From Oligoflexales bacterium (GTDB lineage: Bacteria > Bdellovibrionota_B > Oligoflexia > Oligoflexales > Bog-1112), in contig JBGCEP010000001.1 in NCBI GenBank assembly GCA_045106415.1, positions 15,522-79,521 on the forward strand: a stretch of DNA of 64,000 nucleotides, written 5' to 3'. Below, piece by piece: positions 1 through 54,664 of the stretch; the first letter of the stretch is position 1; the number at the start of each line of letters is the position of its first letter. The notes under the pieces were generated by a model, which searched no databases, was not told where the DNA came from, and saw only the letters and a list, made by a program, of their open reading frames with translations. The translations under genes and the position numbers were made by a program.

Positions 1-240
1 ATCCTTACTTTTTTATCAAAAATAAGCTACCCAATATATCTTAGCCACCTTACTATTTATATAGCACTTCAAAAATCATTCACTTTTCAAAGTCACATAA
101 AACTTGGATACATCGCATCATTAGTGACAATTTTAGTAAGTTACATCATTCATAGGTATATAGAAAAACCTGGTATCAAAGGTTCTGCTTTACCATCTAC
201 ACTAACAATTCAAAACATTAACAATAAAGTCCACCATTGA
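1..240 (+). CDS. C-terminal fragment of acyltransferase-3 (OafA-like) membrane O-acyltransferase, truncated by window edge
   Basis: Not in the ORF track. Frame 1 reads ILTFLSKISYPIYLSH...SYIIHRYIEKP...*, matching the family motifs (ISYxxYLxH; s-y-xx-ExP). Confidence 0.75.
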   Translation: MLTFLSKISYPIYLSHLTIYIALQKSFTFQSHIKLGYIASLVTILVSYIIHRYIEKPGIKGSALPSTLTIQNINNKVHH

Positions 241-940
241 CATGCAGCGTTGCACCTGTAATATATTTTGCTTTTTCAGAGCATAAAAAAGCCACAGCGT
301 TTCCAACGTCCTCAGAAACACCCCATTTTTTCAATGGAATATTTTCTTTAACTTGTTCTTTAATAGAATCAGAAAGATTTTTCGTCATATCTGTTTCAAT
401 AAAACCTGGAGCAACAACATTACTTCTCACACCAAAAGAGGCCATATCTTGCGCGACAGATTTTGAAAAACTCTCAATTGCACCTTTGCTTGCTGCATAG
501 ATAGACTGCCCAGGATTTCCTTTGTGTGCTACAACTGAAGAAATATGAACAAAGCACCCTGTTTTTTGTCGAATCATTTGACGAGATGCATACTTACTCA
601 ATAAAAATGTTGATTTTAAATTCGTAGTCATCGTTAAATCAAAATCTTCTGGCTTCGCCATTGGAAGTATTTGATCTCGACACATTCCAGCATTATTGAC
701 CAAGACATCGATGCGTCCATATTGCTTCTTAATGTTCTGAATCAATTGTTCACATTGCTCAGTATCTGAAAGATCTGCTTGCATAGCACTACCGCTTATA
801 CTCTCAGCCACTTTACAAGCTAGAGCTTCATCACTCCGATAATGAACAACAACAAAGTACCCTTCTGAAGCGAGAATCTCTGCACATGCTTTACCAATCC
901 CTCTTGAGGCACCTGTCACCAACGCTATTTTTTGACTCAT
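218..940 (-). CDS. fabG: 3-oxoacyl-ACP reductase (SDR)
   Basis: TGASRGIG, NNAG, GNPGQSIYAASK, PGFIETDMT, LHVNGG. ATG at 940 follows a GGAG SD. Confidence 0.9.
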   Translation of the reverse strand: MSQKIALVTGASRGIGKACAEILASEGYFVVVHYRSDEALACKVAESISGSAMQADLSDTEQCEQLIQNIKKQYGRIDVLVNNAGMCRDQILPMAKPEDFDLTMTTNLKSTFLLSKYASRQMIRQKTGCFVHISSVVAHKGNPGQSIYAASKGAIESFSKSVAQDMASFGVRSNVVAPGFIETDMTKNLSDSIKEQVKENIPLKKWGVSEDVGNAVAFLCSEKAKYITGATLHVNGGLYC

Positions 941-1003
941 CTCAAACTCCAAAATCTATACTAAGGCCACGCTAACATTGTTGAGGTGATAAAAAAATAC
1001 TTT

Positions 1004-3388
1004 TCAAGACACTTCGTCTAAGCTCCACAAAGCATGACGAAGCCGCATTGTGATTCCAATAATCTCTGATGTTTGTTCCCATATCCCGACGAGGTCATCT
1101 CGAGCTTCCGGATGAAATCCTTCATGAGCAGCTCTATTTCTAAAATCTTGAAATGTATGAAGATGCTTACAATACATAGCAAGCTCACTATCTGCTTGAA
1201 AATCTAGAGGGAACAAATCTTGCATCCCGTACTCACATTGTTTACGCCCAAAACATAGAAAAAATAAAGCAAATGCTTTCACACCATCTAAAGTAAATCT
1301 TTTTCCAGGCCTATATTGACAAATAGCTCTCAACATTTTTCGCAATTTAAATCGTGAGAAAAAAGGAATATCTCTCACAATAGGCAGCCCAGCCAACATA
1401 TTCTCAAAACGATCCATAGACGCAGGAATAGGTCGGGCATAACCAACAACATCAAGCCTTCGCTGTAAAATACCTTGCGTTAAAAGTTTTTGAACACTTT
1501 CTTCAAAACTTTCTCTAAATAAAAGTTCCAAAGCTTTATACTGCATATCAATTGTAGGACTTAAATCTATTGAAGATATAGCAAAAACTTCTTGCGAACT
1601 AAAAAATTGCGCAGTCCGCAAAGCTCTTCTTACTTCTGTAGAAAGTTCATTGTAATAAGGAATTTTTTCTTCTAAAGCTCTGTCTAAATCTTCACCTTGC
1701 CCTCCAGACTTCTGATCGACAAGGCTTTCTTCCCTATCCATAGGTAAGAGCAAAGGAACAAGAGCTTCTTCTAAAAGCTGGAATTCATCAATACCCCTTT
1801 TACGAAGATCCGACAGTGTACTTCTTAATTCATCTTGCAAAACCGTCAAATCATAATTTTGAAGCTCTTTACAAATATCCAGAGATATCTCTAACTTCAC
1901 ATTGGGGCGGCTCAATAAACTCACAAGCTCTTGCGCTGCCCTTGCTGTCCCAATAGCACCTAATGTTGTAACTAACATCTTTAACTCAGCATGCTGTTGA
2001 GATCTGACATAATCTAAAAGTTTTAAAACAGCTTCATCCCTATGCTGTTTACTTAATACTTTTATATATCCTAACTGAGCAATGCCTCCATTTTTACGGG
2101 CCATTGCTGTCAAAGTATCTAATGATCCTTCAGGGGGTTCATTCCAAGCCCGAGTCAACGAGCTCCAAATATCATCACCTAAAGGGTGACGATATTCTTG
2201 AGAGTAGACAGCTTTAAAGAAATCTTTTCGAGTTGATTTTTCTTCAATATAAAACCCTGAGAAATCAACTTTCTCTCCGGAAATGACAGATTTCTCCTCT
2301 TTTAAAACAACAGCCATATCTCGAGTCGGACCTGTATTTCCTGTTAATTTCAGGCGAAGACGCACAGGTAAATAAGACAGCGGTTCTGCTGGATTTTCAG
2401 CTTGTGCTATTTTATCCTGAAGACTTTTTAAAGTCTTTAAAGAAAGCCCATAAGGTAAAAGACCTTGTAACGCTCCGATGACTTTCGTCGTTTCTACCGA
2501 GCAGGAAATATGATCAAGACTATTTTCTAAAACTTTCTCATCAATACCTGTGCACCAATGCCACAAATCTTGATTTTCTCGTACTAAAAAAGGCAAATAC
2601 TCAGCAAGTTGCGGAGCTTTTAATTTATGCCGGTGCCACAATAACGGCCACGTCTGTTCAACTCTTTGCAAATTATCTTCCGCTATCTTTTTACCTAAGG
2701 TGCCTTTTTTTTGACTTTGCTGAATCAAGCAAGAAATAATATGAGACCACGCCAAACTTTTCGATCGGAAATCAATAGGGTTCAAGACTTCAGGTTGAAA
2801 ACGAGCACTCCAAACAACAGCTGCAGCAAAGGCACGACTATTCCACTGGTCTGGGCGATCTTGTTTCAAGATTCTGATACACAAATCTTCAAGATCATCA
2901 TGGTGAACGCTCCATTGCACACTTCTTTCCAGCAAAAAGGCCTGCAAAGTTAAAGACCAATCAAAGAGATCATTTCGCTCTAAAATAGATTGAAGCAAAA
3001 GAGACCCTGTCGCCTTATGACAAAAGTTTAAAGCTGAGTAAATAGTTCTCTGTGTCACGTGAGGTGAACAAACAAGAGGAAGCAACCTATACCACAATAG
3101 GGTATCTGTTTTTTCACTCCATACCTCAAGGGCAGAAGCCACTAAATCCTGATTCCAATCCATCAGAGACGATGTTAAAAAGTGCTCTAAGGCAAGACCT
3201 TGATCACTTTCAATATTTTGAATTAATAAGCTTTTCTCAATGTTTTTCAAGGGTAAACAAAAAATATCTTGAATAACATCAAGAGGGATCGTATCGCGAC
3301 ACTGTTTCATTTGTTGCAAAATGTCGATACGCACGCTGTCTTCACGAACTTCAAAATAACGCTGGAGACGAGACATAAGAATACTCAA
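1004..3388 (-). CDS. Large alpha-helical (HEAT-like) protein with C-terminal HEPN-like domain
   Basis: 794 aa, Leu-rich helices (LVTTLGAIGTARAAQELVSLL). C-terminus has DLSP...YKALELLFR and FRNRAAH. Confidence 0.55.
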   Translation of the reverse strand: MSILMSRLQRYFEVREDSVRIDILQQMKQCRDTIPLDVIQDIFCLPLKNIEKSLLIQNIESDQGLALEHFLTSSLMDWNQDLVASALEVWSEKTDTLLWYRLLPLVCSPHVTQRTIYSALNFCHKATGSLLLQSILERNDLFDWSLTLQAFLLERSVQWSVHHDDLEDLCIRILKQDRPDQWNSRAFAAAVVWSARFQPEVLNPIDFRSKSLAWSHIISCLIQQSQKKGTLGKKIAEDNLQRVEQTWPLLWHRHKLKAPQLAEYLPFLVRENQDLWHWCTGIDEKVLENSLDHISCSVETTKVIGALQGLLPYGLSLKTLKSLQDKIAQAENPAEPLSYLPVRLRLKLTGNTGPTRDMAVVLKEEKSVISGEKVDFSGFYIEEKSTRKDFFKAVYSQEYRHPLGDDIWSSLTRAWNEPPEGSLDTLTAMARKNGGIAQLGYIKVLSKQHRDEAVLKLLDYVRSQQHAELKMLVTTLGAIGTARAAQELVSLLSRPNVKLEISLDICKELQNYDLTVLQDELRSTLSDLRKRGIDEFQLLEEALVPLLLPMDREESLVDQKSGGQGEDLDRALEEKIPYYNELSTEVRRALRTAQFFSSQEVFAISSIDLSPTIDMQYKALELLFRESFEESVQKLLTQGILQRRLDVVGYARPIPASMDRFENMLAGLPIVRDIPFFSRFKLRKMLRAICQYRPGKRFTLDGVKAFALFFLCFGRKQCEYGMQDLFPLDFQADSELAMYCKHLHTFQDFRNRAAHEGFHPEARDDLVGIWEQTSEIIGITMRLRHALWSLDEVS

Positions 3389-14483: not shown

Positions 14484-14677
14484 CTCACACCTCACCAGTT
14501 AAGATGCCATTCTTTTAACAAAAACAAAAAGAACCGGATAGTTTCTTATGACGAATTTAAAAAAACATAAACTCTATTCTACTTGTACAGGAAAACTCTC
14601 AAGGTACATTAGCATCCATTTTCTCAGAGGATCTGGAACTTGATCATGACTATTTGGCATAAGAGAACCATTGCACA

Positions 14678-15665
14678 TATAACATTGGCTACACTTATTT
14701 ACTCAACACCTTCATAGCCACACAAACAGCATCATAAATAGAGTCACATCCATCTATGAGAATTTTTCGTATTTTTGTTTTAACTTGATGCCACTTGTGT
14801 TCGATAGGATTGAGATCTGGACTATATGGGGGGGGAAGATATAGAACTTCTGCTCCATAATCTTGAGATATTTGAACTATATCTGAGGACTTATGAAATG
14901 AAGTATTATCAAACACAATAACTGTATTTCCATCCAAATGTGGGATTAAAACCTTCTCAAGATACGCATTGAAAACCTCTGCTGTACAACTTCCTTTAAA
15001 TACAAATGGAGCAATAATTTCGTTATGGTTGTTGAGTGATCCAATGATATTAACAGCTTTATGTTGTGAACTTTCTTTTAAACCATGGAGCCTGGAACTT
15101 TTATGACTCCATCCATGTTGACAGGATTCATTTTTCTTAACGCCACACTCATCGAGATAAATAATGTTTTTATCACTTTTATTATTTATTTCCTTTTGAA
15201 AGTCACTCCGATTTTTATCGCAGCGATTTTTGTATCCAAATGTTTTTTTATTTGTAAAACCGATAAGCCGCAAGTATCGACGAATACTCCGTGGAGAAAT
15301 ATCCCCCCCAAGCTTGAGCCATTTCTTCGGAACTTCTATCAGGTTTTTCTTCTACAAATTTTTCCAAGTCTTGAATTTTACCTGGTCTCTATTTACGTTT
15401 CCGTGGTTTCAGAGAGCCAGTCTCTGTCATTTTCTTTTTCCAATTATAGATTGTTTTACGAGCGATATTGATAGCCAGATTCTATCGCATCAATCACTTT
15501 ACTCTGCAAGTCTAATGAGTATAACTTAGGAGTGTTAATTCCAAACATTTGATAAAACTAGGAATAACATACTAAACTTATAAGATAAAATCACGTCTCT
15601 CGAATTCAAGTTATAAGGGGAATAGACCCACTCTGGGTGAGCAAATAAAATCAGCCAATGCTATA
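14678..15665 (-). mobile_element. IS630-family insertion sequence, degenerate
   Basis: Imperfect 28-bp terminal IRs TATAACATTGGCTACACTTATTTACTCA / TATAGCATTGGCTGATTTTATTTGCTCA (22/28) beginning with TA, enclosing a DDE transposase. Confidence 0.88.
14695..15530 (-). pseudogene. IS630 transposase pseudogene
   Basis: DDE part is open (YLDECG, FDNTSFHKS, YSPDLNPIEHKW). The HTH part PKLYSLDLQSKVIDAIESG / NIARKTIYNW is broken by frameshifts, an in-frame TAG and a G7 slip. Confidence 0.85.
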
Positions 15666-15760
15666 TCACAATAAATGACCGACGCTGTTAATGTTCTGCA
15701 AGTCATCGCCCGTGGCAACATCTTTATATAAAACGTTAAATTTCAAACCGAATCAGTATA
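15666..15760 (-). repeat. 95-bp dispersed repeat, copy A (probable left end of a second IS630-like element)
   Basis: 81/95 identical and ungapped to the reverse complement of 63895-63989. Begins TATACTGAT on the minus strand. Confidence 0.85.
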
Positions 15761-16009
15761 GTAGGGATTTATCTTTCTTTTATTTGCAAATTTTTTAGGT
15801 CAATATGGAATAAAGATAACTCTAGGGTCGTTTTTTAAATCCAGCTGAAAACATAGGGGTATAGAGGCGGTACTCATGAAACTTGTTAAGTTTTGAGTAT
15901 TGTTTGAGTGAAGGTCACTTGATCGCAATGAGAGCAGCCTATATGTTAGCCTTTTCGAAATTTCTAAAGATATGAAGAGTGATTCAAAAATGTCAGAAAC
16001 TTTAAAAGC

Positions 16010-16900
16010 ATGGATGAACAAATGAACTGTGATGTTTCGTGCTCTCAGCAGAATCAAGCACAAGTATTGGCAGGGAGTGCTCCCTCTCAAAAAAGACAAT
16101 GGTTTATTGAAATACCTCAGCCGTGGCCGAGACAGGTTTTAGCAAGCTCTTATTTGCATGCTCAGGTTTTACTAGCCTTGCAGCACGCTGTTCGTTCTAA
16201 GATCTCAGTATATGGATTTTGCGGAGAAAAAACTCGTGTTGGTGCTAAAAAAATAAGACTTATAGATGCATGGAGTGAGGGAAATGGAGAAGGAAAGCAT
16301 CAGCATTATGAGATTTCAGCTCAGGAATCTGTAGAGTGGTTTCAAAGTCTTCTTCATAATCCAGAGGGAGTGGCGTCTTATCGGAAGGACCAAGTGGGTC
16401 GAGATGTTTTTATTTGTACACATGGCCAAAGAGACCAATGCTGTGGAGTTTTAGGTGAAGAAGTATATGTTAAATATAGCCATTTAGCTTCAAATGATCT
16501 AAGGATTTGGAAGGTGAGCCATCTCGGTGGTCATCGTTTTGCTCCTACATGGTTGGAATTACCAGAAAAATTGTGGTGGGGACGAAGTGATTTTGACGCA
16601 GTTGTGACTCGGACTGGGCAACCGTGGAAGTCTTTACGAGGACGTTCAATGTTATCTCCTCGAGCTCAAATTTTAGAAAGAATGATGCTAGAACAATACG
16701 GATGGCCTTGGCTGGATGTTGCAAAAAATGCTTCTTATCAAGAAAGTGGAAATGATATTGAAGTCACAGCTCCAGGATTGAAAGCGTATGCAGAAATTTT
16801 ATGTCTTGAAAGTTTTCAACCTGTGAGTTGTGGGCAGGCTGCAAAAAGCGTCAAAGAGTACGAAATTGTAGAGTGTCAAATAGGGAGTTTTGAAGTTTGA
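16010..16900 (+). CDS. Sucrase/ferredoxin-like (thioredoxin-like 2Fe-2S) protein
   Basis: ICTHGQRDQCCG and WKVSHLGGHRFAPT motifs. Confidence 0.85.
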   Translation: MDEQMNCDVSCSQQNQAQVLAGSAPSQKRQWFIEIPQPWPRQVLASSYLHAQVLLALQHAVRSKISVYGFCGEKTRVGAKKIRLIDAWSEGNGEGKHQHYEISAQESVEWFQSLLHNPEGVASYRKDQVGRDVFICTHGQRDQCCGVLGEEVYVKYSHLASNDLRIWKVSHLGGHRFAPTWLELPEKLWWGRSDFDAVVTRTGQPWKSLRGRSMLSPRAQILERMMLEQYGWPWLDVAKNASYQESGNDIEVTAPGLKAYAEILCLESFQPVSCGQAAKSVKEYEIVECQIGSFEV

Positions 16901-42229: not shown

Positions 42230-43750
42230 TTGAAGGTTTTGTTTTTAAATCCGCCGTTTATGGCTAATTTTTCTAGAGAATCTCGAAGTCCAGCTGTCGC
42301 AAAGAGTCGCACGCTCTACTACCCTAAGTGGTTAGCGCATGCTGCAGGTGTGGCAATAAAAGAGGGGCATGAAGTTGATTTTATTGATGCACCTGCTGCG
42401 CCTTTTGACACTAAGTATGTGATTGATCGTATGCGTTCGAAAAATATTGAAGCTGTGGTTGTAGAAACATCAACGCCAAGTATTATTAATGATATTGAAG
42501 TTGTTGAAGAGATCCATGCAGCGTTACCAAACGTTCACATGATGATGGTGGGCCGACACGTGTCGGCGCTGCCGAATGAAACCTTTGAACAGACTCCAAG
42601 TTTAAAAGTGATTGCTCTCAGAGAGTATGACTATACGGTTAGGGATTGGTTGGCTGCTTTGGAGTCAGGGGCATCTCTTGATAGTGTTGCCGGTTTGATG
42701 TGGAAAAATGATCGCGGCGAGCTTATTAAAAATGAAAAAAGACCTGTGATTGAAAATCTTGATGAACTTCCTTTTGTATCAGAAGTTTATAAAAGATTTT
42801 TGCATGTCCCAGATTATTTTTATGGACACTCTTACTGGCCTATTGTGACTTTTGATACCAGTCGTGGTTGCCCTTATCGTTGCACATTCTGTCATTACCC
42901 ACAGACGTTTAGTGGTCATCGTATGCGTTATCGTTCTGTGGAAAATGTAGCCGATGAATTTGACTACATTCGAAGAGAATTGCCTGATGTAAAAAATATT
43001 ATGTTTGAAGATGATACTTTTATTATTGATGTTGATAGAACAGAGCGTTTAGCTGATGAGCTGATTAAACGTAACAACCCAATTCCATACACGAGTAATG
43101 TTCGCGCAAATGTAAATGCAGATGTGCGTTTCTTTAAAAAGCTCCGTAAGAGTGGAGCGAGAATGTTCTGTGTCGGAATTGAGAGTGGTGACGATGAAGT
43201 TTTAAAACATATGAAAAAGGGTTTAAACCTAGATAAAACTCATGACTTCATGAAGAATTGTCGCGACTCTGGGATTATGGTTCATGGGTGTTTCATGGTA
43301 GGAAACCTTAATGAAACTAAAGAGACGATGCAAAAAACTCTAGATCTTGCCTTACAGCTGAGACCTGATACAGCGCAGTTTTATCCTATCATGGTGTATC
43401 CAGGAACGGCTGCATATGAAGAGGCAAAAGTAAAAGGGTATTTGAGCACAGAGGACTATAGCCAATGGTTGACTTCTGATGGTTTGCACAACAGTGTTGT
43501 GAATCTACCAAATATTTCTCATAGAGAGCTGGTTGAGTTCTGTGATCATGCCCGGATTAAATTTTATCTCAATCCCCGTTATATTGCTTTTAAAGCCTGG
43601 CAGTCTTTGAAAGATCCGCGAGAACTTGTTCGTAATGTCATGGGATTTCAAAAACTAGTGAAATATCTTATTATGGGCTCTTTTTCGGCTGATGATAAAG
43701 CGAATAAAGAATCAGAAGTAGGAACGAAAACGGCAACTGCAGGTGGTTGA
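42230..43750 (+). CDS. B12-binding radical SAM protein (HpnJ-like)
   Basis: VLFLNPP N-terminus, TSTPS, SRGCPYRCTFC, EDDTF, GIESG, YPGT. Confidence 0.88.
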   Translation: MKVLFLNPPFMANFSRESRSPAVAKSRTLYYPKWLAHAAGVAIKEGHEVDFIDAPAAPFDTKYVIDRMRSKNIEAVVVETSTPSIINDIEVVEEIHAALPNVHMMMVGRHVSALPNETFEQTPSLKVIALREYDYTVRDWLAALESGASLDSVAGLMWKNDRGELIKNEKRPVIENLDELPFVSEVYKRFLHVPDYFYGHSYWPIVTFDTSRGCPYRCTFCHYPQTFSGHRMRYRSVENVADEFDYIRRELPDVKNIMFEDDTFIIDVDRTERLADELIKRNNPIPYTSNVRANVNADVRFFKKLRKSGARMFCVGIESGDDEVLKHMKKGLNLDKTHDFMKNCRDSGIMVHGCFMVGNLNETKETMQKTLDLALQLRPDTAQFYPIMVYPGTAAYEEAKVKGYLSTEDYSQWLTSDGLHNSVVNLPNISHRELVEFCDHARIKFYLNPRYIAFKAWQSLKDPRELVRNVMGFQKLVKYLIMGSFSADDKANKESEVGTKTATAGG

Positions 43751-44726
43751 ATTGAGTCTTAAATGTTCTTTAATTATACCTGTTTATAATGAAGAATCTT
43801 GTTTAAGGAAATGCTTAGAGTCTTGTTTTCACCAGAGCCTACCATCAGACGATTATGAAGTTATAGTCGTTGATGATGGCTCTAGTGATGGCTCAGTCGC
43901 AATTGCACAAAGCTTTCCTGTACGAGTCGTTGAGCAAAAAAATCAAGGTCCTGCAAAAGCTCGCAACAGTGGGGCTGAAGTTGCACAAGGACGGATTTTT
44001 GTTTTTACAGATGCTGATTGTTATTTGTCGTATCATTTCTTGAAAAACATGACTGACCCTATTCTTTCTGGGGAGTGTGATGGTGTTCAAGGGGTGTATG
44101 GTACTGAGCAAAAAGAATTTATGTCACAATTTGTACAAAAAGAGATTGAAAGCCGATATGATGTGATGAAGAAAAATCAATACATCGATCACATCGGTAC
44201 TTACGCAGCTGCCTATAGCAGCAACGTGTTTTGTTCTTTTGATGGCTTTTGTACGGACTTTAAGACAGCTTCAGGGGAAGATACAGAGTTTTCTCACAGG
44301 TTAGCTTCAAAAGGGCATTTGTTGAAGTTGTCGAATCATGCGCAGGTATTTCATGAACATCCTTCTCGATTTTTTGAATATTTGAGAATTAAGTTTTATC
44401 GGGGATATTGGCGAGTTTTACTTTATAGCCGACACCCTGAAAGGGTTTTGAAAGATAGTTACACACCTCAAATTCTTAAATTCGAAGTGGCTATTGCGCC
44501 TGTCTTTTTATGTGGCTTGTTTCTGAGCTTATGGTTTGGTGAGTATTTAGTGATTGGGTTTAGTTTATTAACTGTTTATGGAAAATCAAGTTTTGATATT
44601 GCTAAACGGATGCGAAGGCCTATATTTAGCTTTCCTTTAGTGCTTATTTCTGTGGTTGCTCGATCTTTATCGTTATGGGCAGGGCTTGTTGCAGGGAGCT
44701 GTTCTGGTTTGATAAGTCGTTCTTAA
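43743..44726 (+). CDS. Glycosyltransferase family 2 with C-terminal TM helices
   Basis: IIPVYNEE, VVDDGSSD, NQGPAKARN, FTDADC, GED. Confidence 0.92.
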   Translation: MVELSLKCSLIIPVYNEESCLRKCLESCFHQSLPSDDYEVIVVDDGSSDGSVAIAQSFPVRVVEQKNQGPAKARNSGAEVAQGRIFVFTDADCYLSYHFLKNMTDPILSGECDGVQGVYGTEQKEFMSQFVQKEIESRYDVMKKNQYIDHIGTYAAAYSSNVFCSFDGFCTDFKTASGEDTEFSHRLASKGHLLKLSNHAQVFHEHPSRFFEYLRIKFYRGYWRVLLYSRHPERVLKDSYTPQILKFEVAIAPVFLCGLFLSLWFGEYLVIGFSLLTVYGKSSFDIAKRMRRPIFSFPLVLISVVARSLSLWAGLVAGSCSGLISRS

Positions 44727-45963: not shown

Positions 45964-47187
45964 TTAGTTTTGAATGAAAAAAATTTGGCCTTTTTGATGT
46001 AGTTTAACCCTCTGTTTGAGGGTTTTTATTTTTGTTTTGATTTGAACAGTATGCTCCCCAAGAGGGAGCCAAATTCTTTTAATTGAAATATATTGAGGAA
46101 GCAAACTCCAACTGCGTGTATCTGCTGTTTCTGTTGCAGCTGTAATTATATTTGCAAGAAAACCACCGATTGGTCCAAAGCTTTTCCGGGCTTCTTGTAC
46201 GAGGTTGGCTTTAGCGATGACTCTTGCGAAGCCTTTGGCTAATAAGCGAGTTCTTCTGTCTTCTAAGGAGTTGTGAGCAAGAGCATTGAAATCGACAGCT
46301 GTTTCTCCGTAATAAGTTTTGCCTGCGATAGTGATTTGTGTTTGTGGGTAAAATGGTGATTTTGATAGTGCTATGTAAGGAAAGGAGAACCTTATAGCTT
46401 GCTCATTGACAACTGTGATGAATTCTTTACTTTTTTTAATAGCAATATTCCCATCTCTTTGAATGACAACGACAGAGCTCCCAGTGTGAGCTGGTTTCTT
46501 GATGTGGTGCTTGATCTGCTTTAGAATGTCGATTCTTTTTTTCTTATACGCTAAGGCATAAAGAGAGTGCAGTAACGTTTTTGGAAGGCCTTGTGGCGCA
46601 AACTTTTTATAATTCCCTTTGTAGGCATGAAAAGCTTTCATGTAGTCAATGAGAGCGCTGTCGTCATCGTTATTTGCTTCAAAAATAAGACCTGAAAGCA
46701 TCCAGGCAAATCCATCCTGATAATAGCTATGATTTTGATCTTTAAAAAAATTTAAACGTTGATTTATCCTTTTTGCTTCAACTCTTGCGCTTATAATATT
46801 TTGATCCTCAAGCCAAGAAAGAGCAGACATTGTGTGAATAGCAGTATGTTCATAGTCCTCCCCGGTATAGGATTGAGAAGATTCATTGATGAAAAAAGAA
46901 GATATAACCTCCGAAGCGCTTTTTGTATATGATTGATCAACAAGGTCTGAGGCGATATTAAGGTTAGAGCGAGCTTCTTGATGCTGTCCTAGCTGGGTTG
47001 CTATACTTGATTTTTCTAAATGATAGAGTAAAGTTTCTTTATTATCTTTGATATCAAGGTCATCTAGTTTTTTTTGAGATTCTCTGTAATTCCCTTGGTA
47101 AAAAGAGTTTCTCATATCTTGATTGAGCTGTGTATAAGAAGCGCAGCTCATGAAGAAAAAACATAGTGGGAATAAGTACTTTACCAT
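45964..47187 (-). CDS. COG3014-family TPR lipoprotein
   Basis: Lipobox FMSC; YTGEDYE, ARVEAKR, TETADTRSWSLLP. Downstream of lpoB. Confidence 0.8.
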   Translation of the reverse strand: MVKYLFPLCFFFMSCASYTQLNQDMRNSFYQGNYRESQKKLDDLDIKDNKETLLYHLEKSSIATQLGQHQEARSNLNIASDLVDQSYTKSASEVISSFFINESSQSYTGEDYEHTAIHTMSALSWLEDQNIISARVEAKRINQRLNFFKDQNHSYYQDGFAWMLSGLIFEANNDDDSALIDYMKAFHAYKGNYKKFAPQGLPKTLLHSLYALAYKKKRIDILKQIKHHIKKPAHTGSSVVVIQRDGNIAIKKSKEFITVVNEQAIRFSFPYIALSKSPFYPQTQITIAGKTYYGETAVDFNALAHNSLEDRRTRLLAKGFARVIAKANLVQEARKSFGPIGGFLANIITAATETADTRSWSLLPQYISIKRIWLPLGEHTVQIKTKIKTLKQRVKLHQKGQIFFIQN

Positions 47188-47765
47188 CCTAACCCTGAGC
47201 GTTGAAAGCGTTTTTTGATGAGATGTTTTTGGCTCCAAATAATTTCTGTTGTCTCTAGATTGGTTAAAATGAGATGTGTTTGATAAGTGACTGTTTTGTC
47301 GCCGTCTCTTTGATGAACTTGACTTGATATAGATCCAGACATCATAAAGTTCGCGCCAATTTGGTGCCCGATGCGACCAGCTGTTTGTTTAGAAACCATA
47401 CCGCTGTTGTTTTGATACTGAATCTCTTTTAGAATTTTTTCGCGTTTTTCGCCGTTGATGAATCGAATTTTCCCAGAATTAATGAGTTCATCAGTGATGT
47501 AGCCTTCAAAAGCTTTGCTATCGATATGTTCACTTGTTCTATTCTCAATGTGGTCCACAACGACAACTGGTTTTTTATTGTAGCGACCTTTAAATTCATA
47601 AATCCAAGGTTTTTGAATGACAGCATTAATTAGAATTTCAGCTGTTTTTCGAGCGTCTGTTTCATTCCATTTGTCGTCGAGAATTTCAACTTCTTCTGGA
47701 TTGCTATATTGAGCTTGGTAAGTTGTACAACTACTTATGAGTGTGATGAAAAAAAATAGCTTCAA
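47181..47765 (-). CDS. lpoB: Penicillin-binding protein activator LpoB-family lipoprotein
   Basis: Lipobox ISSC; NRTSEHID, LINSGK, IGANFMMSGSI, LETTEIIWS. Confidence 0.8.
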   Translation of the reverse strand: MKLFFFITLISSCTTYQAQYSNPEEVEILDDKWNETDARKTAEILINAVIQKPWIYEFKGRYNKKPVVVVDHIENRTSEHIDSKAFEGYITDELINSGKIRFINGEKREKILKEIQYQNNSGMVSKQTAGRIGHQIGANFMMSGSISSQVHQRDGDKTVTYQTHLILTNLETTEIIWSQKHLIKKRFQRSGLGW

Positions 47766-47778
47766 ATTAAGACTCCTT

Positions 47779-48015
47779 TTAGTGATTGGATAATGTGTCT
47801 ATACGCGTCCACCGGACTGTTAGTGAGGTGCGAACTTTGAGCTTTGTTGTTCCTAGAATATCAAACCCTAAAGAACCAAGCCATGTTGTTGAAAAATCTC
47901 TTAAGCGAAAAAGAGGGCTTGAGTGAAGTATATCTTGTTCTTGAGGGCTGCTTTGTAAAGAAGGTGAGTGAGATAGCGCTAGCGCGATAATAATAAAGGA
48001 AATTTTTCTGATCAT
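47779..48015 (-). CDS. Small secreted protein with one amphipathic beta-hairpin
   Basis: Signal peptide; FRLRDFSTTWLGSLGFDILGTTKLKVRTSLTVRWTR; ATGA-coupled to the upstream gene. Confidence 0.55.
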   Translation of the reverse strand: MIRKISFIIIALALSHSPSLQSSPQEQDILHSSPLFRLRDFSTTWLGSLGFDILGTTKLKVRTSLTVRWTRIDTLSNH

Positions 48016-49208
48016 GATTTTTTTCTTTCTGGTATCAAGTAGATTAACGTCATTTTAACATCAGCTTGGGCTGTTGCTAAAACTATTCTTCCTGCTCCTG
48101 AAATTTGAAAGCCCAGGAATAAAACTCTTGGCCGCCAATAACCATGATGATTGCGAAATCTTCGGATGAAAAACCTTCCGATCTTCATTGACTTTTTAAA
48201 ACCTTTCACAAGCCTTTGAGGTATAACCTCAGAGTGAGAAGGTGTTTTTTTGGAGAGGTTTTGGAAATGATGAGGCGTTTTATTCGTTAAAATATTTACT
48301 TTTTTTGATGCTATATTAGGTTTTGTTGGTTGAGTTGTTCTACTGAGAGAAATGCTAAAATTTAAACCACCTTGTGCATATCCAACTCCAATGTCTCCAC
48401 CCCCAGAAGCGCTGACTCCAAAAATAGCAGCGACAGGATGTTCTCCAAAGGGAGTTGTTATCGCAGCTCTTTCGAGTTGTTGTGACAAATTATCTATAAG
48501 GTAAGTGAAATTACTAAGTTTTTTAAATGGTGTGGGCCGAGGTCCATTTCTCCACGTTAATCCGATTTGGAGGACGCTTGATGCAGTTAAAATTGTAGAC
48601 CATCTCCCTCCAACACTAAAATAAATAGAGCTTTGTATCATGAGGGGTTTCCATTTGACGTCTTCAGGTACTTGCGAGGCAAGTTCAAGCATTTTTGAGC
48701 TGACTTCGGTAAATGCTTTGTGAGCTTCCTCTCTAGATATTTGAATGTTTTTATTTTGAAGAACGGCTTGTATTGCTGGTTCTAGATCTTCATTTAAATG
48801 ATTAGCGCTGCCGATGGAGTAATTGTCGTGTTGACTGATTCCGTCGGTAAATGGGATAGGGTCGTTTTTTGTTATTTTCTGTGTTCGTGGTAACCAAACA
48901 AGCCCTGCAGTTGCTGTTCCGCCAGTAGCCATGATTCCAAAAGTACCACTGGAAGTTAAGCTAAATCCTGCTGCTATTGCGACTGGTTTCCAAGTTTTTT
49001 TTTTATAAGAGGTTTGAAAATTGTTCAACGAATGATCGAGGACGCGAGTTGTTCTGTGAATTTTTTTTGCAAATGAACGATTCGTCTTCAGTGAGGTTTT
49101 TTGGTAGTCTGCGTGATCGAAGCTGTACCATGATAGAGGTGCTGTGTCTGCGTAAAGCGGTTGTGAGAAAAGGAGTAAAGTGAGAATGATCTTGTTATAA
49201 GAATTCAT
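48012..49208 (-). CDS. Secreted protein with four helix + beta-hairpin repeats
   Basis: Signal peptide from ATG 49208; four W/E-x-P-initiated Gly-rich hairpins. Confidence 0.7.
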   Translation of the reverse strand: MNSYNKIILTLLLFSQPLYADTAPLSWYSFDHADYQKTSLKTNRSFAKKIHRTTRVLDHSLNNFQTSYKKKTWKPVAIAAGFSLTSSGTFGIMATGGTATAGLVWLPRTQKITKNDPIPFTDGISQHDNYSIGSANHLNEDLEPAIQAVLQNKNIQISREEAHKAFTEVSSKMLELASQVPEDVKWKPLMIQSSIYFSVGGRWSTILTASSVLQIGLTWRNGPRPTPFKKLSNFTYLIDNLSQQLERAAITTPFGEHPVAAIFGVSASGGGDIGVGYAQGGLNFSISLSRTTQPTKPNIASKKVNILTNKTPHHFQNLSKKTPSHSEVIPQRLVKGFKKSMKIGRFFIRRFRNHHGYWRPRVLFLGFQISGAGRIVLATAQADVKMTLIYLIPERKKS

Positions 49209-49537
49209 GTTTCGTTCTCCACTTTTTGTATTGCTATTTGTATAGCAGGTGAGGCTTTGAATTTCCAAGAATCAAGAATATTAATTTCACCTTCAATTCC
49301 AATCCCAATGATGACAGTTTCAATCTTCCATGAGTCGTCTTTAAAAGGTGATGCAGAAAGTTCTAGATCAATAGATTCATGCGCTTTAATGAGATGTTTT
49401 CCAAGCTCTGTGCTTAAAACTTCATCTTCTATTTTTAGCTTCCGTTCAAAACCTTTGGTGTCGACCCCAATTAGGTGAACACCTTTAGAGCAATTCGTGA
49501 GGCTTAAGAAGATACATAAGATGTGGAGTTTTGACAT
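49205..49537 (-). CDS. Lipoprotein with one helix + beta-hairpin module
   Basis: Lipobox LTNC; WKIETVIIGIGIEGEINILDSWKFKASPAIQIAIQK. Confidence 0.65.
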   Translation of the reverse strand: MSKLHILCIFLSLTNCSKGVHLIGVDTKGFERKLKIEDEVLSTELGKHLIKAHESIDLELSASPFKDDSWKIETVIIGIGIEGEINILDSWKFKASPAIQIAIQKVENET

Positions 49538-50677: not shown

Positions 50678-52063
50678 TTATAGCCAAGGAGTCTTTTCCA
50701 TAGCTTTTGTGAAATTATGAATATTATCTGGTGTCGATTGGTAGAGTTCTGCTGGGTAGGACTGTTCCCATAAGTAGCTAAATAAATTTAGTACTTTCGT
50801 TTGGTCTGGTGTTTCTATTTCCGTGTTTTTAAATGTGGTTGCAACCTTTTCAATGTTTGTTGCTTGATGTACAAGATCGGGATGGTTATATACAGAGTCC
50901 CCTAAAGCAATAACCGGTGTGCCGAGAGCGAGAGCTTCAGCCCCAGACTTAGAGTTGATAGTAATGACTGCTTTTGCTTTCCTTATAACGTCATGATTGT
51001 TCTCATGAGGAACTAATAATTTGAAATTGTTGTGCTTTTGTTGAATTTTTTTGACGTGATTTAAGCCTATTGCACCCACGCACGCAGGGTGTTCTTTTGC
51101 AACAAGCAAAGTGTTGCTTGGAAGAAAATTACAGATCGTCTCTAAGAGTGATAGTTGATTAAGGTATTGAGGTGTGCGAACTGTTAACGAATAATCCATT
51201 GGGACATGAAAAGGGTAGTAAATATATGATGTATCTTTTAATTCAGATAATGAAAGCATATTCTTTTTGTAGACTTGGTAGCTTAAGATATTTGTGACAG
51301 CTCGTCTAGAATGGACCCATATTTTCTCATATTCTTGAGTCTCTTTATGAATATATTTTGCTTTTATTTTTTTATACAATTTTTTGAAGTTTTCTGAATT
51401 AAGAACTTTTGAAAAACCTATTTGAAAATGATGTTTATCTTTAAAAGGAACTACAATTGTTTTTGCATTTTTCATGTGTTCGATATAGTGGACAACCTCA
51501 TCTTTAACTGGTGTTTGAGACAAATTTTGAGGTGGTTGTATTGCCATGAGAGAATTTTTAACAAAATGAAGGCGACCCTTAAAAAGAGCAGGTTCAAAAA
51601 AGATATGGTCAAGTTTATACGCTCGTGCAGTGAAATAGAGAAGCATCGGCGCAATAAACCCGCCTAACTCTTGATAAATACATATTTTTCTATCCTTATT
51701 TTCTTTTAAAATAAGGTGCATAATGTCTAGAAGTGCATTTCCATAGGAGCAAAATTTTTTTTCTAGCTCTTCACGTGTTGGCGTTTCAAAGACGAGTCTG
51801 TCGTGTATGATCGTGCGGGCTAAGTCACAATTAAGTTGTTTAGTAATTTCTTGTGATGTCTTTTTATGAGTTTTCCGAGAGAACTCATAAAGGTCATAAC
51901 AAGTAAATCCTGCATCAATAATAGATTTATTGCCAGGTTGAAAAAAAGAGATGAAAGAGACTAAAGATCCCTGTGAAGTTAGTTTCTTGGCGACTTCTAA
52001 GAAGAAGGAGACATCCCGCATTGCAATGACTGCAAAGACGTAGCTTCGGTGTTTGTGGTCCAA
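50678..52063 (-). CDS. Capsule polysaccharide biosynthesis (KpsS-like) glycosyltransferase
   Basis: YYPFHVPMD, VAKEHP, TINSKSGAEAL..G.PV. Confidence 0.75.
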   Translation of the reverse strand: MDHKHRSYVFAVIAMRDVSFFLEVAKKLTSQGSLVSFISFFQPGNKSIIDAGFTCYDLYEFSRKTHKKTSQEITKQLNCDLARTIIHDRLVFETPTREELEKKFCSYGNALLDIMHLILKENKDRKICIYQELGGFIAPMLLYFTARAYKLDHIFFEPALFKGRLHFVKNSLMAIQPPQNLSQTPVKDEVVHYIEHMKNAKTIVVPFKDKHHFQIGFSKVLNSENFKKLYKKIKAKYIHKETQEYEKIWVHSRRAVTNILSYQVYKKNMLSLSELKDTSYIYYPFHVPMDYSLTVRTPQYLNQLSLLETICNFLPSNTLLVAKEHPACVGAIGLNHVKKIQQKHNNFKLLVPHENNHDVIRKAKAVITINSKSGAEALALGTPVIALGDSVYNHPDLVHQATNIEKVATTFKNTEIETPDQTKVLNLFSYLWEQSYPAELYQSTPDNIHNFTKAMEKTPWL

Positions 52064-52214
52064 GTTAACCTCAAAGGTGAATAGATGGAGAAATCATATC
52101 ATTCTTTGTTATTTTTTTTCAAATCTATGGTGAGTTTTCTTCTTTACTTTAAGATAAGTAGTTTTTTTTCACAGGTTGTGATTTGATGAAGGTGAATTTG
52201 AGAGAAGGTTTAGC

Positions 52215-53489
52215 ATGCAAGAATCAGGTGATGATTCTCAAAATATATCTAGAGAAATTTACCCAAAAGTTATGCAGTGGATATTTTTTAGTGTTCTTGT
52301 TTTTATTATTAATGGTAAGTTTTTTTATGCTTCGCATGGCTGGGAAGGGCATTTACGCCCCTTGGCGCCAGTGTATCTTATTGTTTTGAAAGATATTGTG
52401 GCATTAATTTTTATGATTATTTTTTCTTTCTATTCATTTTTTTTAGATAATAAACCAATACGCGCAGATAACTGTTTTATATTAGGATTTATATTCATTC
52501 TCTTAATTGTTTCTATGCTTCATATTCTTCACCAAGAAACACTAGTTTGGATGCATCATTTTTTCCGCAACTCTATTTTGTATTCTTTTTTTCTTATTGC
52601 CTCGAATCGATTGTCTAATTTAGAAAATATTTCGAATCTGATATCAGTTTTACTTTTTGCTTCTTTTTTAAATAATTTTTCATCGCACATACAATTTTTT
52701 ATCTCCAGCGATGTTCTTTTAGATGGTGTTAGAAGTATAGGTTTTACTGATAACCCTAATACAGCAGCTAGTATTCTTCTTATGGGTTTTGTTATTTCTT
52801 TTGTTAGAATGTTTTATAGAAAAAAATTATTATATGCAATAAGCTCATTGTCTTTTTTGACCGCATTGCTTTTAACGCAGTCAATGACTTATTTGGCATT
52901 AACTATTTTATTCACCTTATTATTCCCAATTTTAAAATTTAGGAGAAATTGGATATTTTTAAGTCTTGCTTTCTTATCTTTTGTTGTCCTTTTTTCATCT
53001 GTTTATTTAAGCGGTTATGATGTTGTTAACAAAATTGTATCACGTTTTGAATTATTAATATTTCATCCTGAGAGTTTCAATTCTTTTTCAGCGCGAATGA
53101 ATAATTATTTTGATGCTTATCAAGCCTTAAATGATGATCCTTTAGGCTGTTTTTTTGGCGTAGGATTCTCTGAAAAATTAATGACTTTCGATTCAACTTT
53201 TTTAGTGATTGGTGTGAATTTTGGAATTTTGTTTTTGCTTATTTTTATAATATCTAATTTTGTAATTTTTGTTATTTCAGCCAGGAGATTTATTCAGGGG
53301 GGAGAAAATATAGAAATATTATTTTCTTTGCATTTAATTTATTTTTTATCAGGTTTGGTGAGAAACATTTTCACAAGGACTCCTTTGAATGTAATTAGTT
53401 ATGTTGTAGTGGGGATGTTGATGACCCTCTTGTACGAAAACGAAATTAATGCTCAAAATATTTTGAAAAATAAAGGCGTTGTTCCATGA
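52215..53489 (+). CDS. O-antigen ligase/polymerase-like membrane protein
   Basis: Many TM helices; RSIGFTDNPN, LLTQS, SFSARM, FFGVG. Confidence 0.75.
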   Translation: MQESGDDSQNISREIYPKVMQWIFFSVLVFIINGKFFYASHGWEGHLRPLAPVYLIVLKDIVALIFMIIFSFYSFFLDNKPIRADNCFILGFIFILLIVSMLHILHQETLVWMHHFFRNSILYSFFLIASNRLSNLENISNLISVLLFASFLNNFSSHIQFFISSDVLLDGVRSIGFTDNPNTAASILLMGFVISFVRMFYRKKLLYAISSLSFLTALLLTQSMTYLALTILFTLLFPILKFRRNWIFLSLAFLSFVVLFSSVYLSGYDVVNKIVSRFELLIFHPESFNSFSARMNNYFDAYQALNDDPLGCFFGVGFSEKLMTFDSTFLVIGVNFGILFLLIFIISNFVIFVISARRFIQGGENIEILFSLHLIYFLSGLVRNIFTRTPLNVISYVVVGMLMTLLYENEINAQNILKNKGVVP

Positions 53490-54664
53490 GAATCAATGAA
53501 TATTTTTTAAGAAAAAAATACCATGTTATCTTAATCTCAATTTCATTAGGTTTTTTACTTTCATGTATTAGTTATGTGTTGATTCCTATTCACTTTAAAA
53601 CTCATATAGAGATATTGAACCATATAGGTGATGAAGAGATTGTAGAAGATGAATCTCTTTATCAAGAACTTCAAAATAGAATGTGGAATAACCCAAAATA
53701 TTCAAGGATTTTTTCATCTTATTTTTTAGATAAAATAAGTAGTGAGAAAAAGAAGGAATCTTTTATTAGCGATATTTCACTAGTGCATAACGTTCTACAG
53801 CCTGATGCAATGAATAATAAAGATAGGATGTCAAGGTATATTCTTTCTTTCTTCACTAAGAAAAATTTTTCAAGAATAGGAAGTACTTTTTATTTGATGA
53901 AGACGGATAAGAATAAATCATCATTGATGATGAGTTTAAGTGATCAAAATGAAAATCGCCAGATTATAGAAGCTTCTTTTTTTGCGTTAGAAAAAACAGT
54001 TGAATCTTTTAACGAAGACAGATTGAATGAGGTTAAGTCTTCAAATAAAAAATCAATTAAGGAAAGTAAGATAGCGTATGAAAGAATTTATAGTGATTAT
54101 AAAAATAATATGAATAATCTTGTGCAAGAGATTTCAGATCTTCGGAGGAATATGGCAGCGCTTTCATTATCTATGAATTTTAAAGGTAGAAAAATAGAAG
54201 AGAAATCTTTTGATATGATTATTAATGACATGCATCAGAAAAATATATCTTTTTTTCCAATGGTTTTTGATCGTTTAAACATTTTTGAATTATCGCTGCA
54301 GGCCAAATATCTAGAGGCTAATGTGGAAGAAAAAATTAAGTATCAAAATATGCTTACTAAATATGCATTTTTATATGATGATTTAGGAGATCGGTATAAA
54401 AATCAGAGTAATAAAATAAAAGTTGTTAGAACACATATTCTTGAAACAGAAAAAAAATACCTAGAAATACTTAATAATAAAAATTATGCTTTAGCTCTTC
54501 CTAATCAATCTATTCTTTATGATGACCATATGTTAAGTGGTAGTGAGTTTAATAAAAAACAATCTTTAAATATGATCTTTTCTATAGTTGTTTTTTTCTT
54601 ACCTTTATTCATAACCTTATTCTGTTTAGCACTTTTGTCGGGTTTTCACCTTAAGAATGAATGA
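53486..54664 (+). CDS. Wzz-like polysaccharide co-polymerase
   Basis: N- and C-terminal TM helices flanking a coiled-coil domain; overlaps the Wzy-like gene. Confidence 0.55.
   Translation: MRINEYFLRKKYHVILISISLGFLLSCISYVLIPIHFKTHIEILNHIGDEEIVEDESLYQELQNRMWNNPKYSRIFSSYFLDKISSEKKKESFISDISLVHNVLQPDAMNNKDRMSRYILSFFTKKNFSRIGSTFYLMKTDKNKSSLMMSLSDQNENRQIIEASFFALEKTVESFNEDRLNEVKSSNKKSIKESKIAYERIYSDYKNNMNNLVQEISDLRRNMAALSLSMNFKGRKIEEKSFDMIINDMHQKNISFFPMVFDRLNIFELSLQAKYLEANVEEKIKYQNMLTKYAFLYDDLGDRYKNQSNKIKVVRTHILETEKKYLEILNNKNYALALPNQSILYDDHMLSGSEFNKKQSLNMIFSIVVFFLPLFITLFCLALLSGFHLKNE

Follow-up and report, generated by a model that had tools for sequence, protein, structure and literature searches.

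Exported Pepco-type modules in a conserved gene trio of Oligoflexales: a candidate hetero-oligomeric assembly of the cell envelope

Trypco1 and Trypco2 have been described, in the passages of Kaur et al. 2020 (eLife, PMC7159879) that deal with them, as small proteins encoded beside trypsin-like peptidases in conflict systems. For a Pepco protein from Streptomyces (SsPepco, 117 residues), it is reported in the main text of a recent preprint that cytoplasmic beta-barrels of 9-10 subunits are formed constitutively, which are resistant to heat and to sodium dodecyl sulfate (Evans et al. 2025, bioRxiv 10.1101/2025.11.14.688446). According to the same text, the lumen of the barrel is charged and its exterior hydrophobic, an amphipathic basal helix is essential, and Pepco becomes toxic once a protease trims its inhibitory C-terminal tail after a conserved isoleucine. 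The neighbour in this defence module is described there as a trypsin- or caspase-like protease, to which a sensor is often joined. In the published Pepco and Trypco papers found, with supplements outside the search, solely the cytoplasmic, protease-linked form is described, and the text of Evans et al. 2025, supplements aside, has no mention of a signal peptide or periplasm, nor of tandem, secreted or lipoprotein forms. This paper deals with three adjacent genes, here called A, B and C, which lie in a stretch of 64,000 nucleotides from an Oligoflexales bacterium (contig JBGCEP010000001.1; the whole stretch is called the window). Judged by profile comparison of their relatives, the module from which A, B and C are built belongs to the Pepco/Trypco1 superfamily.

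The trio consists of three minus-strand open reading frames within 47779-49537, called in the order A, then B, then C (Table 1). An earlier note, made from the letters of the window, had described here three exported proteins built from six modules of a helix and an amphipathic beta-hairpin and joined by two ATGA overlaps. The three frames are found exactly where that note had placed them, both junctions are ATGA overlaps, and the six hairpins quoted in it were located in the translations of A, B and C by eye and by their coordinates.

For B, an exhaustive profile search identified 459 clusters of B-like proteins (50% identity) at E<=0.001 and 262 at E<=1e-30, with lengths of 299-536 residues among the best 150. 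An alignment of 110 sequences, designated A4, was made from the window B and 109 of the 149 others in the best-150 list; the remaining 40, judged by eye to be only partly covered, split in their match or unusual in length, were left out. When the four B modules cut from A4 were compared with each other by hhalign, probabilities of 92-97% and E values of 7e-7 to 3e-10 were obtained. The A family (30 unique sequences) matched the B modules at 90-96%, and the C family (20 unique sequences) matched A at 85% and module 1 at 64%, always in hairpin register. The module which had been claimed to be shared by all three chains is borne out by this profile-profile comparison, most weakly for C.

The likeness of this layout to Trypco and Pepco domains, which had been noted earlier, is borne out at the level of the family. 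Pepco (PF24393) was matched by 71 of the 110 rows of A4 at E<=0.01, with a best value of 1.8e-14, and Trypco1 (PF19493) by 15. Among the first 50 members of A4, which were scanned singly, 33 matched Pepco at E<=0.01 and 19 reached its cut-off (>=27 bits), and the cut-off for Trypco1 was passed by two. The best Pepco stretch was module 1, 2, 3 or 4, varying with the B relative scanned. Six of the eight B proteins from related loci scored 27.5-32.8 bits for Pepco, and the window B finds its Pepco-matching relatives directly (E 1.3e-10 and 1.5e-8). A search with PF24393 over 131 genomes of the phylum gave no match; since hmmscan detects the domain in the B proteins of six of these genomes, this blank is due to the first filter of the search tool. 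Scans of the 110 B relatives against NCBIfam and PADLOC gave one stray match each, with no other defence model in PADLOC, and a word-based homologue search with B returned B itself only. In the ESM Atlas, the best feature score for B was 0.77, which is below the usable range; the structural rows had template modelling scores of 0.33 or less, and the Atlas model of B itself had a predicted local distance difference test value (pLDDT) of 0.36.

Export signals recur across the relatives of all three proteins, as had been claimed from the window alone. An N-terminal hydrophobic segment was identified in 107 of the 110 B relatives versus 18 of 110 for an internal control stretch, a lipobox-like motif with a conserved Cys in 24 of 27 A relatives, and a hydrophobic N-terminus in all 13 C relatives. 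On this sequence evidence, export is a family trait of A, B and C. Cys16 of the window A aligns with the lipobox Cys, which is conserved in at least 90% of the relatives. For B, a lipobox-like motif was found in 28 of 110 relatives (internal control stretch, 0 of 110), and in the three full metagenome loci it is B that is the lipoprotein, A having a plain signal peptide. An Asp at +2 follows none of the listed lipobox-like motifs of the A and B relatives. By the sorting rule for E. coli lipoproteins, the absence of Asp at +2 would point to the outer membrane, a rule that may not hold in this lineage.

With A4 as alignment, B was modelled by AlphaFold2 as four units, in each of which one or two helices precede a long hairpin (H39-68/E78-107, H135-177/E186-220, H233-248/E258-290 and H330-352/E358-391), with a pLDDT of 82.8 and a predicted template modelling score (pTM) of 0.83. 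Four of the five B helices are amphipathic beyond shuffled sequences, of which at most 0.9% reach the observed value, and the strands are 13-17 residues long with unbroken hydrophobic positions. The alternation of hydrophobic residues described for the hairpins is clear in the family columns, where positions that are 0% charged and strongly hydrophobic alternate with positions that are 60-88% Arg, Asp, Glu or Lys, but it stands out from shuffles in only part of the strands of the window copy. Each hairpin has a near-invariant Trp which opens the first strand and one which closes the second, and a Gly at the turn. Together with the amphipathic helices, this alternation repeats the pattern given for the Pepco barrel by Evans et al. 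2025. Modelled alone, A gave a weaker result (pLDDT 69, pTM 0.35; E19-25, E31-37, H38-62, E70-85 and E91-105). Most A relatives stop a few residues past the last strand.

The window C is without a helix before its hairpin, a helical stretch being present in most C relatives. Natural fusions of B and C were identified in two of the eight longest or shortest B hits that were read (P0082 and P0111); both have a C-like module at the C-terminus of B and a lipobox. One C clade (L043-L047, L009 and the C-terminus of P0111) carries a Pro-x-Gly-Trp-x-x-Tyr-Lys/Arg-Pro-like tail past the last strand, which may be a regulatory or sorting element; this Pro/Gly/Trp/Tyr-rich tail is absent from the window C.

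For the complex, a three-chain 1:1:1 prediction of mature B, C and A was made, in which A was the scored chain and which was accompanied by three controls. The complex passes with an interaction prediction score from aligned errors (ipSAE) of 0.78 (runs 0.78, 0.80 and 0.75), versus 0.00, 0.01 and 0.01 for the controls; the mark is reached by 116 of 157 solved complexes and by two of 215 mismatched pairs. The runs have at least 72% of their contacts in common, and the partner pLDDT is at least 61. Sequence searches of the PDB with the B and A profiles gave chance rows only (E>0.3), and Foldseek of B against the PDB gave nothing at E<=0.001. Since no solved relative was found, it is unlikely that the complex passes because the predictor had learned a deposited one.

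In this model, the last strand of A (100-104) is placed antiparallel to B 75-80/81, the first strand of module 1, and the residues of A that follow the lipobox (19-27, with a strand at 21-23) pair with B 89-92. The A helix contacts the B helices at 52-64 and 143-148, and the first hairpin strand of A (67-83) lies against C 59-73. Further contacts of A are with B 209, at the hairpin turn of module 2, and with B 379-381, at that of module 4; only in a closed ring would these two turns be the next-nearest neighbours of A on its two sides. The ring order implied by the model is A-M1-M2-M3-M4-C, the same as the gene order. Of the multi-chain barrel that the earlier note had proposed, the shared sheet is supported by the complex prediction and by the Pepco literature; the closed barrel is not seen directly. 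In a structural comparison by VIA-align, the hairpins of B modules 2-3 were laid on pieces of barrel walls, with Z 4.8 for 9u5s_A (75 residues, root-mean-square deviation 5.0) and Z 4.6 for both 5oyk_A and 7ofh_A, values below 5 being common by chance for this tool. These matches to secretin, porin and autotransporter walls are not evidence of kinship; the VIA-align match covers two hairpins only, and no outer-membrane protein family of Pfam was matched by A, B or C.

The order A-B-C on one strand was found at all ten places in nine genomes of the window's order and in all three metagenome loci with both flanks, so that the trio recurs in 13 of 13 readable loci; in two further loci which end early, C follows B in both. 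The number of modules, 1+4+1, does not vary among the loci read. The trio is present in nine of 131 genomes of the phylum, all of them inside the window's order, and one genome has two copies. In that genome (G012), the two are diverged whole trios on different contigs (L003/L005/L027 and L015/L020). A search with an alignment of four sequences gave no relative in genome contigs and five loci in metagenome contigs. The named relatives all come from metagenome-assembled genomes, under the four source names Bdellovibrionota, Oligoflexales, Pseudobacteriovorax and 'Deltaproteobacteria'. Weak B matches in G058 (E 0.0014, five stops) and in G077 (E 0.0037, in a frame of 56 residues) were set aside as noise.

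The neighbours of the trio vary and include SulP, Kup, an ABC ATPase, XdhC, a copper monooxygenase and others. Eleven flanking frames from seven of the nine genome places outside the window were scanned against Pfam, L002 and L004 being read by eye only, as were the flanks of the three full metagenome loci. No Pfam-significant protease was identified among the 11 frames scanned, and no sensor, immunity or secretion-system gene was noticed among the flanking frames listed for the genome places and metagenome loci. The sole protease-like neighbour among the 11 lies in L010, a high-GC relative, where an exported lipoprotein directly upstream of A (165-1019, plus strand) matches Peptidase_C25 (clan CD) below the cut-off, at E 9e-4 and 19 bits. 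At L043, a 710-residue exported protein is encoded upstream of the trio (148-2280, plus strand), in which an HExxH zinc-peptidase motif was seen by eye only. At L004, a transposase-looking frame, also judged by eye (1-534, plus strand), adjoins the trio and hints at mobility of the cassette.

From these results we propose that the trio could be a self-contained cassette for an exported, hetero-oligomeric assembly of the Pepco type, that is, a membrane complex with a shared sheet, a reading on which we regard the chances as evenly balanced. Its starting point is a set of six homologous modules, in each of which an amphipathic helix in principle precedes a long hairpin, and which are split 1+4+1 over the chains. 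A, B and C would be exported by Sec, with one subunit lipidated, the single lipid anchor being carried by A in the clade of the window and by B in another clade. The chains would then join edge to edge in gene order, from A through B modules 1-4 to C and back to A, and the six hairpins would most likely close into a pseudo-hexameric barrel of 12 strands with a hydrophobic exterior and a polar or charged lumen. One end of the barrel, at the periplasmic surface of the membrane, would carry the Trp ring and the amphipathic helices, and the other, across the bilayer, the tight, Gly-rich turns. The hairpin tips would accordingly enter an envelope membrane from the periplasmic side, and the barrel would act as a pore.

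A number of points weigh against this assembly. The window A, B and C are without a match in Pfam or NCBIfam even at E<=1, and in searches of the whole genome PF24393 gave nothing at the trio locus (best elsewhere 16.1 bits), the best PF19493 score being 12.8 bits and likewise away from the locus; membership in Pepco therefore rests on the homologues. The homology of C to the module is just 64-85% probable, and the lipobox of the window A is non-canonical, with Asn at -1. The 180-degree hydrophobic moment exceeds that of shuffles (p<0.05) in only three of the eight strands of the window B, whose polar face is mostly Ser, Thr and Gln, so that the side facing the lumen would be polar, not charged. 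The B monomer is predicted with confidence on its own (pTM 0.83), and its own helices may shield the sheet in a soluble fold. Canonical Pepco rings hold 9-10 hairpins versus six here. The complex job departs from the calibration in having three chains and custom alignments, and we infer ring closure and the contact of C with module 4 from a model that lists contacts of chain A only. The exported assembly is so far a matter of sequence and models.

If the assembly is real, its function could be that of a constitutive accessory outer-membrane channel, to which we give somewhat less than half of the probability; a latent lethal or antagonistic pore in need of a trigger would be less probable, at about a third, and some other function the least probable of the three. 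The slight lean towards a channel is due to the fixed stoichiometry, the coupled genes and the absence of an encoded trigger. A more specific proposal is a lipid-anchored channel of 12 strands (2 + 8 + 2) which inserts tip-first from the periplasm without the beta-barrel assembly machinery (BAM) and which would represent a second, independent route to outer-membrane beta-barrels; in this full form we consider it unlikely.

The same assembly might instead be a latent lethal pore, serving on the envelope side in abortive infection, stress or antagonism, which stays inactive until a remote protease trims its tail, as happens to cytoplasmic Pepco. In favour of this reading, the sole characterised relatives are, as far as the text of the Pepco preprint goes, protease-licensed death effectors; the spread of the trio is sporadic and accessory-like (nine of 131 phylum genomes, one of them twice) with variable neighbours, an exported Peptidase_C25-like lipoprotein lies upstream of A in L010 (E 9e-4, below the cut-off), and one C clade has the Pro/Gly/Trp/Tyr-rich C-terminal tail. 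However, the 11 scanned flanking frames hold no Pfam-significant protease and in the listed flanks no sensor or immunity gene was noticed, most A relatives end just after the last strand, none of the 110 B relatives matches a PADLOC defence model, one stray aside, and fixed stoichiometry together with translational coupling suits a structural complex; we judge it improbable. Release of the pore as a weapon against prey or competitors, the second of the two options in the earlier note, perhaps by vesicles or on contact, with insertion into foreign membranes, would fit with the toxicity of Pepco barrels, as described in the preprint text, with a tip-first topology having helices and a Trp ring at one end, which recalls beta-pore-forming toxins, and with relatives that are labelled Bdellovibrionota, Oligoflexales, Pseudobacteriovorax or 'Deltaproteobacteria'. 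This is made very unlikely by the lipid anchor conserved on A or B, by the presence of the trio in only nine of 131 phylum genomes, by the location of the window trio among the cell's own envelope-biogenesis genes, and by the flanks, of which 11 frames were scanned against Pfam and in which no secretion-system or immunity gene was noticed.

It is also conceivable, with a probability that we place between those of the latent pore and of the weapon, that no pore is formed, and that the three proteins make a soluble periplasmic or surface-tethered complex, or three lipocalin-like scaffolds, in which the sheet packs on the helices. The confident B monomer with helices beside every hairpin is what this would predict, two-layer alpha/beta proteins also show a one-sided hydrophobic sheet, the polar face of the window copy has few charges, and the best structural matches are weak (Z <=4.8). 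Against it, the module is homologous to one which, by the account in the preprint, builds membrane-active barrels; the strands of 13-17 residues have uninterrupted hydrophobic positions with conserved Trp at both hairpin bases, the structural matches, weak as they are, fall on secretin, porin and autotransporter barrel walls, and A is predicted to extend the B sheet by edge pairing. For the stoichiometry, a ring of more than one heterotrimer (two or three A-B-C units, 24-36 strands), or B homo-oligomers capped by A and C, would be closer to the 9-10 hairpins per ring that canonical Pepco prefers according to that text, and 1:1:1 was the sole input modelled. The contacts of A with C, with B module 1 and with the turns of modules 2 and 4 fit a six-hairpin ring, and every locus read shows 1+4+1 modules; the larger ring has, in our estimate, little probability.

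When the proposed A-B-C assembly is compared with known systems, Pepco and Trypco1 come closest: the module is homologous, comprising an amphipathic helix and a long beta-hairpin in about 100 residues, each strand has a hydrophobic and a charged face, and modules join into a barrel, which is experimental for SsPepco in the preprint text and predicted for A-B-C. The exported trio nevertheless differs from known Pepco in compartment, chain organisation and regulation. A, B and C carry signal peptides or a lipobox, whereas Pepco is a cytoplasmic, single-domain protein of about 117 residues; four modules are fused in B, and three distinct chains in fixed order take the place of one homo-oligomer, with six hairpins in place of 9-10. 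No trypsin- or caspase-like protease or sensor lies beside the trio in the flanking frames scanned or read, most A proteins are without a long C-terminal tail, and the window proteins fall below Pfam thresholds.

Two further groups share features of the predicted architecture. In toxins of the leukocidin and gamma-haemolysin type, a hetero-oligomeric barrel is formed from one amphipathic hairpin per unit and inserted tip-first from one side, as is only predicted for A-B-C. These toxins, which have large cap and rim domains, are secreted as soluble monomers that assemble on the target cell, and they are unrelated in fold and sequence, whereas the A-B-C units are tiny, partly fused and lipid-anchored. 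In the anchors of trimeric autotransporters and in TolC-type trimers, three chains share one barrel, which has 12 strands like that of A-B-C if the A-B-C ring closes. They are BAM-dependent homotrimers with four strands from each chain, in contrast to the 2 + 8 + 2 strands of A-B-C, whose module comes from an unrelated lineage of cytoplasmic toxins.

The A-B-C family is a large uncharacterised sister of Pepco, with 459 clusters and without a Pfam family, NCBIfam name or PADLOC entry of its own, and annotators gain a name for three recurrent "hypothetical" genes. If the hetero-oligomeric assembly is correct, it would be a natural pseudo-symmetric form, with fixed stoichiometry, of an otherwise variable homo-oligomeric barrel, useful for structure work and pore engineering. 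It would prompt the question whether the envelope barrel or the immune toxin is the older, and may provide a beta-barrel that enters the membrane without BAM. Should the outer-membrane channel be the right function, the trio would form an evolutionary bridge between an envelope channel and cytoplasmic pore-forming immune effectors.

Table 1. Positions in the window of the three genes, their junctions and the parts of the encoded proteins
Feature	Residues	Position	Strand	Length or basis
Gene A, lipoprotein with one Pepco-type module		49205..49537	-	110 residues
Gene B, exported, four tandem Pepco-type modules		48012..49208	-	398 residues, counted from the ATG at 49208
Gene C, exported mini-protein with one hairpin		47779..48015	-	78 residues
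ATGA overlap, A stop/B start		49205..49208	-	
ATGA overlap, B stop/C start		48012..48015	-	
A signal peptide and lipobox-like motif	1-16 (Cys16)	49490..49537	-	
A N-terminal mini-hairpin	19-37	49427..49483	-	Model; conserved motif directly after the lipid Cys
A helix	38-62	49352..49426	-	Model
A long beta-hairpin	70-105	49223..49330	-	Model
B signal peptide	1-20	49149..49208	-	
B module 1	helix 39-68, hairpin 73-107	48888..49094	-	AlphaFold2, hhalign, family columns, complex model
B module 2	helices 135-151 and 159-177, hairpin 186-220	48549..48806	-	AlphaFold2, hhalign, family columns
B module 3	helix 233-248, hairpin 258-290	48339..48512	-	AlphaFold2, hhalign, family columns
B module 4	helix 330-352, hairpin 358-391	48036..48221	-	AlphaFold2, hhalign, family columns
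C hairpin	36-69	47809..47910	-	hhalign register

Downstream of the trio, 13 bases after C, a gene for an LpoB homologue follows, with an AAGGAG box, a TTG start and a match to PF13036 at E 6.5e-41. The position of the trio before lpoB, on which the earlier note had remarked, is without meaning. LpoB is paired with a 424-residue protein encoded downstream of it, which is TPR-like (tetratricopeptide repeat) and reaches the threshold of no Pfam family; the two occur together as a conserved pair in 13 of 14 other loci of the taxonomic family (L029-L042), and in the window they span 45964-47765 on the minus strand. In these other loci, none of A, B and C is found within 1.5 kilobases upstream of the pair, and three genomes with the pair hold the trio elsewhere. 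An lpoB-like frame was found neither among the 11 flanking frames scanned against Pfam nor in the listed flanks of 1.2-1.5 kilobases at the nine other places, no search aimed at lpoB having been made. A functional link between the trio and lpoB was rejected, since the LpoB pair is conserved without the trio in these 13 loci.

Upstream of A, an SDR gene (PF00106, E 2e-43) is located, the end of which overlaps the start of A by 34 bases (49504-49537). Gene A may therefore be co-transcribed with the SDR gene, or use another start codon. A scan of the locus for promoters and terminators gave results no better than shuffles.

The trio of the window is surrounded by genes for envelope polysaccharides, coding for a GT2 glycosyltransferase, a Capsule_synth protein and a Wzy_C-like membrane protein, the last below the cut-off (43743-44726 and 50678-54664). 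The guanine-plus-cytosine (GC) content falls to 29% at 52-54 kilobases of the window, and the polysaccharide genes look like an acquired capsule or O-antigen block. Further away, near 16 kilobases (window positions of about 14500-16100), the GC skew switches from about -0.2 to +0.18 where gene orientation diverges, which may mark a replication origin or terminus, or the boundary of a rearrangement. A DDE_3 transposase frame is located at 14695-15273.

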